64,000 nt of DNA. Origin: a virus. Its lineage: Duplodnaviria; Caudoviricetes. The notes beneath the pieces are model-generated. The model did not search any database. It saw only the letters and a program-made list of their open reading frames with translations, and was not told the DNA's origin. The position numbers and the translations under genes were made by a program. Each line of letters starts with the position of its first letter. The stretch's first letter is position 1. The stretch is taken from positions 10,757-74,756 of IMG/VR virus record IMGVR_UViG_3300013936_000023. One strand, written 5' to 3'. Shown one piece after another: positions 15,872-42,527 of the stretch.

Positions 15872-18481
15872 TTATATTGCAATGGCTTCAACGATTTCGC
15901 CGTGCGAAGTTTTTGGCTTTGGAGATTCCCACCTATCCTTTGCTCTTTGTCTCTCAGCAACATCATAACACGCTGCGCCGCAATACTTTTGCAGTTCATC
16001 TCGCGGCTTAAATCGCTTGCCGCAGATTGGGCAAATCTTCCCAGCGCCCACAAGATTCCTCTCGAGGTTGCGCACGATATCCCAACCAAAGCAAGCCCAC
16101 AACATTTTCTTATTGCTGGACTTCTTGACCGTGTAAGCATAAGCCACAAGGCTATTCACAACATACGCCAAATCTTCGCCGCTCGCCGCCAAGATTTCTT
16201 CACGGACTCGCCGCGAGATATAATCATCGCCATCCTTGATGTTGTCCAGCTCTTCGTTGAATTTTGCTCGATTCCGCAACCAGTAGTTATAAGCCTTTAT
16301 GACTTCAGAATCTTCGCGGATTGTATAGTCGACATCTTTGTTGATAAGCATCCGCCAATCAAATTTACCGATGTTTTTGTTGTATTTTACTCTGGCGTCT
16401 GGTATGCTGTTAGATATGCGGTCCATCGTCGAGCCATTGGGTTGCTCAACTTGCCAAGATTCTTTATCTTTAGCATAAATAAAGAACTGCGGGACGCTCG
16501 ACTTAGTATATCGCTTGATGATCTTGTCAATGCTCTTAGGGCGCTCAGGTAGCCATAAAGTCTTGGCGTAGTCAATCACGGCGTTGTTCTCAAAACAGAG
16601 CCATTTGACCACATCAAGTTGCTCTTGGCCAATCTTACCGCTATTCCAAATCTTCGTGATGTTATTGGATATCGGCCCGATATTGCCGCCAGTGTAAGCA
16701 TGAATCATTCCTTGATACATCGACTCCGGCGTAAGCACAGCGGGCTGGGCCTTCTTGAGGTCGTAGGCCAGCGGTCGAATGTCTGTCATGTTGCGTTTGG
16801 CAATCTTGGTGAGCGTGCGGTCTTTGACTACGAGGCTCTTGTCTCCATCACAATCAAACATGAGGTAACGGCTGATAAGGTCGTGAGTAGACGTGTAGAT
16901 GCACTTGGTCTCGCCAAACCACTTGTCAAGCTCAGTTGTGCGCGTGTTGGTCTTGACCGCCCATTCCCTATACAAGTGCGGCGAGCGGAGACACGCCAAC
17001 TCATCACCGTCGCGGTATTGGTTGGTATACACCTCCCCATCCGCAAGCAGACCCCGTGGATTTTGTTCACCCTTGAATAGCCACTCGCAAAAGGCATAAA
17101 GGTCAGGAGACAGAAACAAGTACTTGCCATTCACGCGCAACCGACCGCCACGCGCTTGTTTGACAAGGCTCTGCTTAGCTTGCTTCAGAATCTCGCGGCT
17201 GTAAACATCCTTAAACAGCTCAGGGTAAATCTCAAGTGCCGCTTGCACAGCCGACTTATAGCGGTTGTACGGCGTAGCTCCAAGTAGCCGCATAGTAGTT
17301 TGGTAATCCGCGCCGATAGTCTCAATCTCGTCAACCGTGCGCTTGGTCAACCGCTCAATCTCGCCATCCGTCATATCGCTGAGAGTCTGAAGCATCTGGT
17401 AGTTGATACGGCTCTTAGGGATATACGCCTCCTCGATATTGCAGAAGCTCGCCTCGCAACCATATGCCTTGAATCGCGCTTTATAGCATTCCCAACTCGC
17501 GTAGTATTTCCAGAGCTTGAATTGGCTCTTGGTGAAGATATAGCGAATATCCTCAAGCACAACATTGTGCCGCTGACCGTAGATATCTGTGACCCACCAT
17601 TGGTCAGGCGTACATTTTTCGCGCAGGAATTTGTCGAACGGAAAGTAGACCATCAAACCCTTGACCCACGGCAAACGAACCATGCGCGTCGGCTTGTCAA
17701 GCATGATACCGCAGCCATCCATGTGGGGGATAGGCGTATCTGTCAACTCGCGCTTGATTTCATACGTCATGCCGTCAATGTGGTCAACCTCACCAGCCAC
17801 CAGTGTCTCAAAATCGTCAACCACAATGCTCTTGTCGATATCGAAATCTTCCCAAACGTCCGTAGCAGAGTTCATCAGCGCCAGATATGCCAAGAACTTG
17901 TTGCAATTCATGCCGCCTTGCCGATTGATATCCTCGATGGTCAATCCACACATCAGGCGTTGCTCTACGCGGAGAAATGCGGACTCGCGGATGAACACGG
18001 CCCTCTTGGTGCGGATTTGGCCAGCAGAAGCAGTGAGGAAAATGTAGTGCTCGCCATCCCAATCAAATCCTTGCTTAACAAGATTCTCAAAGACCTGAAA
18101 GAAAAATACGTTGACGATAATCAAATCCTTGGTAAGCTGGAACGTCTTGAGGTTCAAAGCTCGCGTCAAGCTCGACTCAAACAGGTTGATGACGTTGCGG
18201 TCTTTGAGCGCCTCGGCATTGAGCTGTCGCGTGACACCTTCAGCCGCCCGCTTGTCAAGAATCGCGCTCAGGCGTTCTTTATGCTTAGCAAGACAGCGGT
18301 TGTACGCCGATACGCGCCATTGACCATCCCAAGCATTGGTTTTACCATCCTTGAGCCGCGTCTTTAATTTTGCTCGCGCCGAGTACATCTTGGCCATACG
18401 CCGATGAATCGCTTGCTCATCTGGCTGGTAGAATGTACTGGTATCGCACGAATAGAGATATACTTGATTCGTCAAACTCAT
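15872..18481 (-). CDS. yonO: YonO-like single-subunit double-psi-barrel RNA polymerase
   Basis: 869 aa with catalytic FDCDGD (DxDGD) and LRSPH motifs; upstream of the head operon as in SPbeta. Confidence 0.8.
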   Translation of the reverse strand: MSLTNQVYLYSCDTSTFYQPDEQAIHRRMAKMYSARAKLKTRLKDGKTNAWDGQWRVSAYNRCLAKHKERLSAILDKRAAEGVTRQLNAEALKDRNVINLFESSLTRALNLKTFQLTKDLIIVNVFFFQVFENLVKQGFDWDGEHYIFLTASAGQIRTKRAVFIRESAFLRVEQRLMCGLTIEDINRQGGMNCNKFLAYLALMNSATDVWEDFDIDKSIVVDDFETLVAGEVDHIDGMTYEIKRELTDTPIPHMDGCGIMLDKPTRMVRLPWVKGLMVYFPFDKFLREKCTPDQWWVTDIYGQRHNVVLEDIRYIFTKSQFKLWKYYASWECYKARFKAYGCEASFCNIEEAYIPKSRINYQMLQTLSDMTDGEIERLTKRTVDEIETIGADYQTTMRLLGATPYNRYKSAVQAALEIYPELFKDVYSREILKQAKQSLVKQARGGRLRVNGKYLFLSPDLYAFCEWLFKGEQNPRGLLADGEVYTNQYRDGDELACLRSPHLYREWAVKTNTRTTELDKWFGETKCIYTSTHDLISRYLMFDCDGDKSLVVKDRTLTKIAKRNMTDIRPLAYDLKKAQPAVLTPESMYQGMIHAYTGGNIGPISNNITKIWNSGKIGQEQLDVVKWLCFENNAVIDYAKTLWLPERPKSIDKIIKRYTKSSVPQFFIYAKDKESWQVEQPNGSTMDRISNSIPDARVKYNKNIGKFDWRMLINKDVDYTIREDSEVIKAYNYWLRNRAKFNEELDNIKDGDDYISRRVREEILAASGEDLAYVVNSLVAYAYTVKKSSNKKMLWACFGWDIVRNLERNLVGAGKICPICGKRFKPRDELQKYCGAACYDVAERQRAKDRWESPKPKTSHGEIVEAIAI

Positions 18482-18715: not shown

Positions 18716-18744
18716 TTGACAAATCTATTATTATATGCTATAAT
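18716..18744 (+). promoter_or_regulatory. sigmaA promoter
   Basis: TTGACA-N17-TATAAT. Confidence 0.75.
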
Positions 18745-18840: not shown

Positions 18841-18869
18841 TTGACAATCTCGACTCGTCATGATATACT
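18841..18869 (+). promoter_or_regulatory. sigmaA promoter
   Basis: TTGACA-N17-TATACT. Confidence 0.65.
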
Positions 18870-18977
18870 CGCAAGCGAGGTAAACGAAAATGTTGCAAAT
18901 GCAACAATGTAAATGTTAATAGTTTATTTACAGAATATTCATGATGCTGTCATAGAATCTTGATATAATTACCATAA

Positions 18978-19056
18978 TGGCAGGACAGGGAGTCATGACC
19001 TTGTTGATACCCTCAATATCAACTAACTGCCAAAATTTTTAATACTTGAGGGGTAT
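18978..19056 (+). promoter_or_regulatory. HEG leader RNA copy A (3-way junction plus anti-SD pseudoknot)
   Basis: P1 TGGCAG/CTGCCA, P2 ACAGGG/CCTTGT, P3 TTGATA/TATCAA; loop CCCTCAA pairs with TTGAGGG. Confidence 0.65.
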
Positions 19057-19061
19057 GCAAA

Positions 19062-19832
19062 ATGAATGAAAATGAACGCATTTGGAAACTGTATCGGTAC
19101 ACATGCAAGCATAATGGCCTTATCTATATCGGCATAACCAGCAAAACACTTGATGAGCGCTGGATGAATGGACATGGATATAAGAGCAATCCGAGGCTTA
19201 ACAATGCTATTCAGAAATATGGAGTAGATGGATTTATTCGGGAGATATTACTTGACAACTTGACTCAGCAAGAAGCGTTCGAAAAAGAAATTGAATATAT
19301 TGCAGAATTTAATGCCACAGACAAAAATGTGGGATACAACATATCGATGGGCGGAACAGCGCCAATGGCAGGGAGACATCATTCAGAAGAAACCAAAAGG
19401 ATGTTCTCTCAAACAAGACTTGGAGAAAACAATAGTTTTTTCGGAAAACATCATTCCGACAGAACCAAAGAAATTTTAAGCGAAGCCAACAAAGGCAAGA
19501 AGCATACGGAGGAATGGAAGAAAGAGCAATCTAAGCATTCTAAAATTTGGCACCAGACACATGACAACCCAATGCTTGGAAACCATAGATTTGCCGGTGA
19601 GAACAATCCTATGTATGGCAAGCGTGGCGGGGATTCTCCTTTTGCCGTTAAAGTTGCAAAGTTCTCTCTGGACGGTAAGTTGCTTGAAGTGTTTAATTCG
19701 ACAACAGAGGCGGCGCAGTCTATTGGAGTTTACAATGGAGCTCATATTACAGAGTGCTGTAAGGGAAGACGTAAAAAGTGTGGTGGTTATATATGGAGAT
19801 ATTTTGTGAACGAACAGGAGGAAGAAGAATGA
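19062..19832 (+). CDS. GIY-YIG homing endonuclease with NUMOD3/NUMOD1 modules
   Basis: LYRY...YIGIT...R...E motif; HSEETK/HSDRTK repeats; VAKFSLDG...FNSTTEAA. Confidence 0.85.
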   Translation: MNENERIWKLYRYTCKHNGLIYIGITSKTLDERWMNGHGYKSNPRLNNAIQKYGVDGFIREILLDNLTQQEAFEKEIEYIAEFNATDKNVGYNISMGGTAPMAGRHHSEETKRMFSQTRLGENNSFFGKHHSDRTKEILSEANKGKKHTEEWKKEQSKHSKIWHQTHDNPMLGNHRFAGENNPMYGKRGGDSPFAVKVAKFSLDGKLLEVFNSTTEAAQSIGVYNGAHITECCKGRRKKCGGYIWRYFVNEQEEEE

Positions 19833-23455: not shown

Positions 23456-23536
23456 ACCGCGCGGGCTCTCTAAGCCGTTCGAGCCTTTAATCGAGCGGCA
23501 TTCCATTCAAAATTTTTAATAAAGGAGATTAAAAGT

Positions 23537-23725
23537 ATGAAAATAGATAAAAAAAATATGTATGTTGCATATCCGACATTTTGCAAAAATCCGCGCGAAA
23601 CATTGATTATTTTTGCTGATGATTGTTGCGAAGCGCGCATAAAAGCAAATAAATTTTACGGCCATAGCTTTGTAAATGTCAGACCGCTTGAGAAAACAAA
23701 AGACAAGTATGTTTATAAATTTTAA
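23537..23725 (+). CDS. small early protein
   Basis: 62 aa, SD AAGGAG. Confidence 0.6.
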   Translation: MKIDKKNMYVAYPTFCKNPRETLIIFADDCCEARIKANKFYGHSFVNVRPLEKTKDKYVYKF

Positions 23726-23741
23726 TAAAGGAGATTAAAAA

Positions 23742-23969
23742 ATGCTGACAATGGACAAAATCTGCGCTACACTGAAGGCGCACGGAATTATTTTTGAAAA
23801 GCGCAACGGTGAACAGGTGAAGGAATTTTGTTGTTATTGCTATGCTTATTCTGACGCTTGCGACGTTATCCGCTGGACTTCTGACGCGGGCGCGTGGTAC
23901 CTGATAGACCCCGCCGGGAATAGTGAGAAGCTGACGGTTAACGGCCTGAAGGCGTGGTTAGGATATTAA
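23742..23969 (+). CDS. small early protein
   Basis: 75 aa, SD AAGGAG. Confidence 0.65.
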   Translation: MLTMDKICATLKAHGIIFEKRNGEQVKEFCCYCYAYSDACDVIRWTSDAGAWYLIDPAGNSEKLTVNGLKAWLGY

Positions 23970-27493: not shown

Positions 27494-27518
27494 CAAGCGC
27501 GATGGTGTGTGTTATATT
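27490..27518 (+). promoter_or_regulatory. sigmaA promoter
   Basis: TTGACA-N17-TATATT. Confidence 0.6.
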
Positions 27519-27550
27519 TTAATCATCAACTAAAGCAAAGGAGATTTAAG

Positions 27551-28453
27551 ATGGACATTAAGGAAATTCTTAAAAAGCATAAGATGTGGCTTAACAACGA
27601 GATTGGTGGAAAGCGAGCAAACCTGCGTGATGCAGACCTGTGGGGTGCAGACTTGTGTGGCGTAAACCTGCGTGATGCAGACCTGCGTGGTGCAAACCTG
27701 CGTGGTGCAGACCTGAGTGGTGCAAACCTGTGGGATGCAGACCTGAGTGGTGCAGACCTGTGTTGTGCAGACCTGCGTGGTGCAAACCTGCGTGGTGCAA
27801 ACCTGCGTGGTGCAAACCTGTGGGATGCAAGCCTGCGTGATGCAGACCTGCGTGGTGCAAGCCTGCGTGATGCAGACCTGCGTGGTGCAAGCCTGCGTGA
27901 TGCAGACCTGTGTGGTGCAGACCTGCGTGGCGTAAACCTGCGTGATGCAGACCTGTGGGGTGCAGACTTGTGTTGTGCAGACCTGTGGGGTGCAGACCTG
28001 TGTTGTGCAGACCTGCGTGGTGCAGACCTGCGTGATGCAGACCTGCGTGGTGCAAGCCTGCGTGGTGCAAACCTGCGTGGTGCAAAAAACCTCGATAACG
28101 TTACATGGTCGATTTATACGGCATTTTATCCGCTTCAGTGTCCAGAAGAAGGAGAGTATATCGCATGGAAAAAGGCTCATGGCAAGATTGTCAAACTTAA
28201 AATTACGGAATCAGCAAAGCGTTCTTCTGCAGTATCTCGAAAATGTAGGGCAAGCGAAGCATTGGTTCTTGACATCCAATCTATTGACGGAATGGAACAT
28301 CTTGAATCGGTTGCAAGTGATAGAGATTCTAATTTCATCTATCGTGTTGGCGAAATTGTTCGAGTAAATGATTTCGACGAAGATAGATGGAATGAGTGCT
28401 CGACTGGAATTCATCATTTTATCACTCGTGAAGAAGCTGTGAAATACAACTAA
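27551..28453 (+). CDS. pentapeptide-repeat protein with DUF5758-like C-terminal domain
   Basis: A(D/N/S)L(R/W/C/S)(G/D/C) repeats; C-terminal KCRAS...FDEDRWNECSTGIHHF. Confidence 0.85.
   Translation: MDIKEILKKHKMWLNNEIGGKRANLRDADLWGADLCGVNLRDADLRGANLRGADLSGANLWDADLSGADLCCADLRGANLRGANLRGANLWDASLRDADLRGASLRDADLRGASLRDADLCGADLRGVNLRDADLWGADLCCADLWGADLCCADLRGADLRDADLRGASLRGANLRGAKNLDNVTWSIYTAFYPLQCPEEGEYIAWKKAHGKIVKLKITESAKRSSAVSRKCRASEALVLDIQSIDGMEHLESVASDRDSNFIYRVGEIVRVNDFDEDRWNECSTGIHHFITREEAVKYN
27617..28085 (+). repeat. 15-bp tandem coding repeat
   Basis: About 30 units of GTGCAGACCTGCGTG-like sequence. Confidence 0.9.
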
Positions 28454-41037: not shown

Positions 41038-41186
41038 AAAAAAAGTTCTTGACAACGGCATCTGGATGCGATATAATCTATAATAGAGGTTGAGATAAGG
41101 TTGCAAACTTTCTCATTTAGGACAACGTGCTTACTCCGCGTTGTCCACTCTAATAAAAATTTCTTGAGTAAGGAGAATGTAAGATG
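41038..41186 (+). repeat. ~150-bp direct repeat copy 1: promoter plus HEG leader RNA copy C
   Basis: TTGACA(41049)-N17-TATAAT; near-identical to 42380-42527. Confidence 0.85.
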
Positions 41187-42394: not shown

Positions 42395-42527
42395 CAAAAG
42401 CATCCGGATGTGATATAATCCATAATAGAGGTTGAGATAAGGTTGCAAACTTTCTCATTTAGGGCAACGTGCTTACTCCGCGTTGCCCACTCTAATAAAA
42501 TTTCTTGAGTAGGGAGAATGTAAAATG
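42380..42527 (+). repeat. ~150-bp direct repeat copy 2: promoter plus HEG leader RNA copy D
   Basis: TTGACA(42391)-N17-TATAAT; compensatory GGGCAACG/CGTTGCCC. Confidence 0.85.

Follow-up and report, generated by a model that had tools for sequence, protein, structure and literature searches.

A predicted kissing-loop leader RNA at the start of a GIY-YIG homing endonuclease mRNA in a phage genome

Homing endonucleases are selfish nucleases whose expression is needed, but only a little of it, and to our knowledge the controls of this expression have been worked out only in the T-even phages of E. coli. A 64-kb stretch of DNA (hereafter the window), which is part of a 74.8-kb IMG/VR virus record and carries promoters of the Bacillota type, encodes one such enzyme of the GIY-YIG type. 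The question raised by this locus is whether the ~85-base 5′ start of the GIY-YIG mRNA (hereafter leader A), which can fold as a three-armed structure, restrains translation of the gene. The product of the gene matches the Pfam GIY-YIG domain (PF01541) at 31.9 bits (cut-off 22.6), NUMOD3 (PF07460) at 50.6 bits and the I-HmuI NUMOD-like module (PF22083) at 28.9 bits, the latter two also above their cut-offs; a catalytic domain is thus combined with NUMOD-type DNA-binding modules, as in GIY-YIG homing endonucleases.

The gene and the DNA that moves with it are laid out as follows.

18895..19800, + strand: swapped cassette, consisting of a spacer, its own promoter, leader A and nearly all of the GIY-YIG gene (from comparison with L330)
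18961-18969, + strand: extended −10 promoter, TG-n-TATAAT (from the sequence)
19062..19832, + strand: GIY-YIG homing endonuclease gene, 256 aa (from Pfam domains)

The limits of the cassette were set by comparison with a relative, L330, which is 89% identical to the window through 18894 and in which similarity resumes at 19801. Between these two flanks, L330 has a gene with a T5orf172 domain, the leader of which is short and unstructured. Because a different gene stands in L330 in place of 18895-19800, the promoter, leader and nuclease form one swapped unit; this cassette is mobile, and leader A is, on this comparison, one of its parts. In the adjoining DNA (18841-18920, + strand), the consensus promoter, Shine-Dalgarno sequence (SD) and ATG of the L330 T5orf172-domain gene (L330:1900-3035) survive. 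The promoter (18841-18869, + strand) drives a start codon two bases before the break in similarity at 18894, and in the window this ATG opens a frame of 9 codons only, because the DNA beyond the start codon has been replaced by the GIY-YIG cassette. One site has two different nuclease-type genes as occupants, one in the window and the other in L330.

The sequence-only reading of this DNA had placed an extended −10 element, TGaTATAAT, before the leader, and this element is present as TG-n-TATAAT. No good −35 sequence for it was found, and since it has no usable −35 it is missing from the consensus promoter scan. That scan detected no promoter-like site between 18970 and 19062, and the sole close promoter stands 5′ of P1, the first helix of the leader; transcription probably starts at A18976 or A18977, one or two bases before P1. 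The consensus scan also found strong promoters upstream, at 18716 and 18841, both of which can read into the cassette, and to regulate the nuclease through its translation is therefore sensible here. Transcribed divergently from the region of leader A is a gene for an 869-aa protein (15872-18481, − strand) that matches the Pfam RdRP family (PF05183), the family of the YonO-type single-subunit phage RNA polymerases.

The leader itself is made up of the following parts, with the basis of each in brackets.

18978..19032, + strand: three-way junction P1-P2-P3 (sequence, fold and descriptor)
18991-18998, + strand: P2 loop, AGTCATGA, which contains the palindrome TCATGA (sequence)
19010..19016, + strand: P3 loop, CCCTCAA, the 5′ kiss partner (sequence and descriptor)
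19023-19026, + strand: J3/1 (sequence)
19033..19041, + strand: single-stranded linker of A and U only, from P1 to P4 (sequence)
19042..19056, + strand: P4, a hairpin of 4 bp, ATAC (19042-19045) with GTAT (19053-19056) (sequence and descriptor)
19046-19052, + strand: P4 loop, TTGAGGG, 7 nt, the 3′ kiss partner (sequence)
19048-19053, + strand: SD, GAGGGG, 8 nt before the ATG at 19062

The three helices that had been proposed from the letters alone were all recovered: P1, TGGCAG/CTGCCA, pairs 18978-18983 with 19027-19032 (its 3′ strand begins at 19027); P2, ACAGGG/CCTTGT, pairs 18985-18990 with 18999-19004 and includes one G-U pair; and P3, TTGATA/TATCAA, pairs 19004-19009 with 19017-19022. As U19004 is common to P2 and P3, the two helices cannot both be 6 bp long at once. 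The proposed complementarity between the P3 loop CCCTCAA and the TTGAGGG at the SD holds at seven of seven positions. P4 is an addition to that proposal: TTGAGGG proves to be exactly the whole P4 loop, and because the SD-side partner lies within a hairpin loop, the interaction is a kissing complex and not a plain pseudoknot, joining the 7-nt P3 loop to the 7-nt P4 loop through seven Watson-Crick pairs. The fold of leader A itself was read from a single sequence. A 21-codon reading frame (18977-19042, + strand), possibly leaderless, has its AUG at the presumed transcript start and spans P1-P3, and its stop codon reaches the first base of P4.

Several other identities were considered for this stretch and rejected. 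It matches no Rfam 15 family at gathering score, and the region 18850-19150 matched no Rfam model at E values up to 10. The G+C-rich stem directly followed by a U run that would mark an intrinsic terminator or attenuator is not present in leader A. A palindromic DNA operator was set aside, as G-U pairs are present and the loop palindrome lies one base off the axis of the hairpin; in several members of the group described below, P2 and P3 include G-U pairs, which points to an RNA rather than a DNA structure.

Two further leaders in the window were compared with leader A.

41084-41176 of the window: leader C, before an HNH_3 gene (descriptor)
42426-42517 of the window: leader D, before an HNH_3 gene (descriptor)

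The descriptor called for a P1 of 5 bp or longer, a P2 in which one interruption was permitted, a P3 of 5 bp or longer whose loop has 7-11 nt, a P4 of 4 bp or longer whose loop has 7-9 nt, a kiss of 7 bp in which no more than one pair is G-U, and a start codon 2-12 nt past P4; its ranges had been widened to take in leader A, and the significance for A is therefore somewhat inflated. On both strands of the window (128 kb) it matched three sites, namely A, C and D only, each flanked directly by a promoter on one side and by a homing endonuclease start codon on the other. That one descriptor accepts all three, along with the IMG/VR relatives of C and D, bears out the earlier view that the topology of A is that of C and D. 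The same view held that A differs from them in sequence and in the superfamily of its nuclease, and on both counts it stands, since BLAST found no similarity between A and C/D, and the genes behind C and D are of the HNH_3 type, whereas that behind A combines GIY-YIG with NUMOD3.

The likeness of A to the C/D-type leaders extends to the order and spacing of promoter, P1, P2, P3, A/U linker, P4 and start codon. In A as in the C/D type, the junction would begin at the transcript start, the A/U linker leads to the SD hairpin P4, at least seven pairs can form between the P3 loop and the SD-bearing P4 loop, and a free-standing endonuclease gene follows. A possible further likeness lies in the 8-nt P2 loop, which differs in sequence, AGUCAUGA in A and GUUGCAAA in the C/D-type leader, and contains a 6-nt palindrome, UCAUGA in A and UUGCAA in C/D; for A, chance would yield such a palindrome ~5% of the time. 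A/U-rich linkers occupy the same position in C, D, the L082 type and a contig described below (L013). The P3 and P4 loops are of 11 and 9 nt in the C/D type and of exactly 7 nt in A, P1 of A consists of 6 bp of other sequence, and the nuclease is HNH in the one and GIY-YIG in the other.

A covariance model of the C/D family (R2), which is not in Rfam, was built in two rounds from 11 sequences with three kiss codes, CUUACUC/GAGUAAG, CCUAUAU/AUAUAGG and CUUGUCU/AGACAAG, both sides of which change together. Within this family, 14 pairs have changed on both sides and 95.5% of the cells are paired, a result equalled by 0 of 500 shuffles; the kiss code differs per cassette type, C and D having one in common. 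When R2 was run on the window with filters off, it aligned to leader A at full length and in register, with 13.7 bits and an E value of ~1.6, which is not significant. As the R2 score is low and BLAST is blank, A has the design of C/D and not a detectable sequence ancestry in common with them; the shared layout may represent conservation at the level of structure, for which convergence and very old homology would look alike.

A further leader, “copy B,” had been counted in the sequence-only reading; neither the descriptor nor either covariance model (R2, or the A-only model R3 described below) identified it. A repeated ribosome-binding module, UUUAAU-AAAGGAG-AUUAAA, in which the SD is the 7-nt loop of a 6-bp hairpin, occurs in the window before two small non-nuclease genes (23456-23536 and 23702-23744, + strand). 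Its first copy has 14 identical bases in common with the linker of A and stands 3′ of an 8-bp hairpin, the loop of which contains CCUUUA, complementary to UAAAGG. This element scores 15 bits with R2, which is not significant, and may be what had been called copy B.

Relatives of leader A itself were sought at the levels of sequence, structure and encoded protein. BLAST searches with A yielded no relative in the window or in any of the fetched loci, and the covariance model built from A only (R3) gave nothing below an E value of 1.4 in 352 kb, its best matches falling in coding DNA (e.g., L246:1157-1233). Pattern scans of IMG/VR returned 0 matches for P1-P2 of A, and 12 for the 5′ strand of P1 together with J3/1 and the 3′ strand of P1, all of them chance matches in coding DNA. 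Protein-guided scans for its nuclease in IMG/VR, JGI metagenomes and GTDB genomes found none above 41% identity, and among GenBank phages tblastn found none above ~32% and blastn none. A search of 5.8 billion proteins yielded homologues of the nuclease with 53-84% identity (P0001-P0024), which occur only in ENA and Logan assemblies.

Kissing-loop leaders recur before other endonuclease genes, with other 7-nt codes. The 7.8-kb viral contig L013 carries a GIY-YIG gene with 31% identity to that of A, preceded by a leader with the layout of A and 7-nt loops, in which a fourth code, CCUUAUU/AAUAAGG, joins one 7-nt loop to another. This leader scores 8.2 bits with R2; a MAFFT alignment of A with L013 was structurally inconsistent, and a joint covariance model was therefore not built. 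Additional leaders were located as follows.

L326:240-348, + strand: C/D-type leader in a related phage
L329:974-1078, − strand: C/D-type leader in a related phage
L089:~545-603, L121:~540-600 and L317:~1435-1491: two-hairpin leaders, before HNH and GIY-YIG genes

The leader at L326:240 has the code CUUGUCU/AGACAAG and an 8-nt palindromic P2 loop, GUGCGCAC. The three two-hairpin leaders are clearly related to one another, and their kiss joins the loop of the first hairpin to that of the SD hairpin, with one code per contig (CCUCCAA/UUGGAGG, CCCGAAU/AUUCGGG and CCGUAAU/AUUACGG); a loose two-hairpin descriptor was too permissive, with many matches inside coding DNA, and its matches were not counted as evidence. 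In a set of 227 distinct regions upstream of endonuclease genes, 16 loop-to-SD complements of at least 7 nt occur, against 2.8 expected. That the kiss partners change together in no fewer than seven codes is the chief argument for selection on the kiss; for A itself, it speaks by analogy only, through the codes of the other members. The leader of another GIY-YIG gene (L246:1346-1471, + strand), located 3′ of a consensus promoter, contains interleaved complementary segments, in the order GGTCGAG, CGCAGGTATA, CTCGACC and TATACTCCTGCG; this arrangement suggests an H-type pseudoknot beside the SD.

Two known systems bear on what such a leader might do. In T-even phages, the endonuclease genes I-TevI, I-TevII, I-TevIII, segB and Aeh1 mobE are held down by RNA structures that sequester the ribosome-binding site (RBS) (PMC2988022). 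Leader A would likewise be a cis-acting RNA structure that hides the RBS of a phage homing endonuclease mRNA, and it would hold down the synthesis of a selfish nuclease that may do harm and whose gene read-through transcripts also reach. The SD of the T-even genes is part of the stem in a single stable, local hairpin, whereas that of A lies in the loop and 3′ strand of P4 and would be masked over a longer range, through a loop-loop kiss with one arm of the three-way junction. Within the T-even structure, a late promoter yields a shorter, translatable mRNA, whereas the promoter of A lies 5′ of the whole structure; the type of host also differs, A belonging to a phage with Bacillota-type promoters, unlike the T-even phages.

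In the env8 cobalamin riboswitch, the loop of a junction arm kisses the loop of the RBS hairpin (L5-L13), and making this kiss perfectly paired brings expression near to background with or without ligand (PMC5028336). Leader A and env8HyCbl both have a multi-helix junction closed by P1, a short single-stranded linker and an RBS in a hairpin loop; in A, as in env8HyCbl, the kiss of a junction-domain loop with the RBS loop would block ribosome loading. The junction is three-way in A and four-way in the riboswitch; the kiss of A consists of seven perfect Watson-Crick pairs, whereas that of the riboswitch is interrupted and needs the ligand; and among A-type leaders, unlike the cobalamin riboswitch, the kiss sequence varies freely from member to member. 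No cobalamin-binding core was recognized in A, the region 18850-19150 giving no match to the Rfam Cobalamin or AdoCbl-variant models at E values up to 10.

It is fairly probable that leader A is a cis-acting translational brake, in which the kiss constitutively masks the ribosome-binding site. Transcription from the extended −10 promoter would begin one or two bases 5′ of P1, and the first ~57 nt would fold into the three-way junction, which would pre-position P3. The A/U linker would then permit fast docking of P4 onto P3, so that, as soon as P4 is made, its 7-nt loop, which bears most of the SD, would pair with the P3 loop. With the SD masked, the 30S subunit would rarely find its site and little GIY-YIG nuclease would be produced, regardless of which of the three upstream promoters made the mRNA. 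We infer three things here: that the RNA adopts this fold in vivo, that translation is reduced by the kiss, and that repression is constitutive and not switched. The repression exerted by a perfect kiss in env8 and the RBS-sequestering structures of T-even phages speak for constitutive masking (PMC5028336, PMC2988022), as does the fact that the cassette, leader included, takes the place of another gene relative to L330.

Energy calculations on leader A give a mixed picture. The minimum-energy fold recovers P1-P3; the P1-P4 structure is at −16.1 kcal/mol, with nested folds ranging from −16 to −18 kcal/mol; the P3 loop (19010..19016) is at least 85% unpaired in the nested ensemble; and the kiss duplex CCCTCAA/TTGAGGG adds −9.6 kcal/mol on top of the nested fold. 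The three-way junction alone has a z-score of −2.36, with 3 of 200 shuffles as good. Against constitutive masking stand the z-score of the whole leader (−0.98, not better than its shuffles), the marginal stability of P4 alone (four pairs, −0.2 kcal/mol) and the preference of the nested minimum-energy fold for a competing hairpin with a 3-nt loop; to these are added the insignificant R2 score of A, the failure of the A-only model to find a relative, and a three-way junction that seems more than simple masking requires. On energy alone, the case that A exceeds chance is weak to moderate; on architecture, it is strong.

That same surplus of structure invites a reading of leader A as a switch, in which the kiss is opened, for example by ribosomes on the 21-codon frame at 18977-19042, whose leaderless translation would unfold the junction and expose the SD; temperature, or a factor of the phage or of its host, could be other triggers. 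The existence of the frame favours this, and in L013, too, an AUG stands at the 5′ border of P1; the frame in L013, however, is only 8 codons long, and the leaders of C, D and the L082 type are without one. The frame in A, moreover, has no SD, and its start depends on the presumed transcript start, and the junction nucleotides are not conserved from A to L013 to C/D, as would not be expected of a shared ligand pocket. A switch is regarded as unlikely.

Action beyond the molecule has a precedent in the c4 antisense RNA of P1 and P7, whose leader hairpin loops are complementary to a ribosome-binding region downstream in the same transcript, as is the leader loop of A. The specificity of c4 RNA resides in covarying loop and target bases, and it is a processed, separate small RNA with two loops that serves an immunity circuit. 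Leader A, whole or processed, might similarly act in trans on the SD of other copies of its cassette, or dimerize through the palindrome of the P2 loop. In line with this, each cassette type has a separate kiss code, C and D having one in common, and the P2 loops of A (UCAUGA), of the C/D and L082 types (UUGCAA) and of L326:240 are self-complementary and unable to pair inside their own loop. Such action is nonetheless very unlikely, given that the P2 loop of L013 contains no palindrome, that a random 8-nt loop has a ~5% chance of containing a 6-nt one, that the Rfam C4 model does not match the leader A region (gathering score; E values up to 10), and that a cis partner 30 nt away should outcompete one in trans. 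The broader proposal that A belongs to a large, undescribed class of “bar-coded” kissing-loop riboregulators, which move with endonuclease cassettes of several nuclease superfamilies and also act between molecules, is quite unlikely as well. If it were true, a private 7-nt code, perhaps with the P2 palindrome, could for instance shut off cassettes of its own kind that enter the cell in a co-infection, so that selfish genes would have an immunity based on RNA, comparable to that of P1/P7 c4.

Short complementary runs might also arise without function in an A/T-rich leader, and the z-score of the whole leader, the singleton status of A, its R2 E value and the three probably false matches of the descriptor in 1.9 Mb of real DNA from elsewhere, where it also matched the known family and L013 as one new case, are compatible with chance. 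The architecture is nevertheless non-random. In 69 block-wise dinucleotide shuffles, the descriptor made 4 matches, or 0.058 per window, yet the match at A fills precisely the interval from a promoter to an endonuclease start codon, the position that the leaders of C, D, the IMG/VR family and L013 occupy. In 4 of 96 genes of the window, against 0.45 expected, the loop of an upstream hairpin contains a complement of at least 7 nt to the SD region, and the loop-to-SD match alone has a probability of ~0.005 per gene. Chance is regarded as very unlikely. Very unlikely, too, is the account that P1 and the compact fold mainly protect the mRNA from 5′-end-dependent RNases, with the SD complement secondary: the presumed start lies within two bases of P1 in A and C, but a single 5′ hairpin would be enough for this, and the joint change of loop and SD partners in seven codes would be left unexplained.

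A portable promoter-leader module of the kind predicted here would be a second, structurally different solution to the control of homing endonucleases, one that recurs with differing sequences and kiss codes before GIY-YIG and HNH genes in uncultured gut-type phages. A full-text literature search found no report of kissing-loop or pseudoknot leaders of homing endonuclease genes. Copy A appears to retain the design where sequence similarity is gone, and it offers a compact, natural, ligand-free predicted kissing-loop repressor, the strength of which could follow from its 7-nt code. Elsewhere in the window, ~40 tandem 15-nt units (27557-28159, + strand) lie inside a 314-aa frame (27509-28453) and give rise to a five-residue protein repeat.
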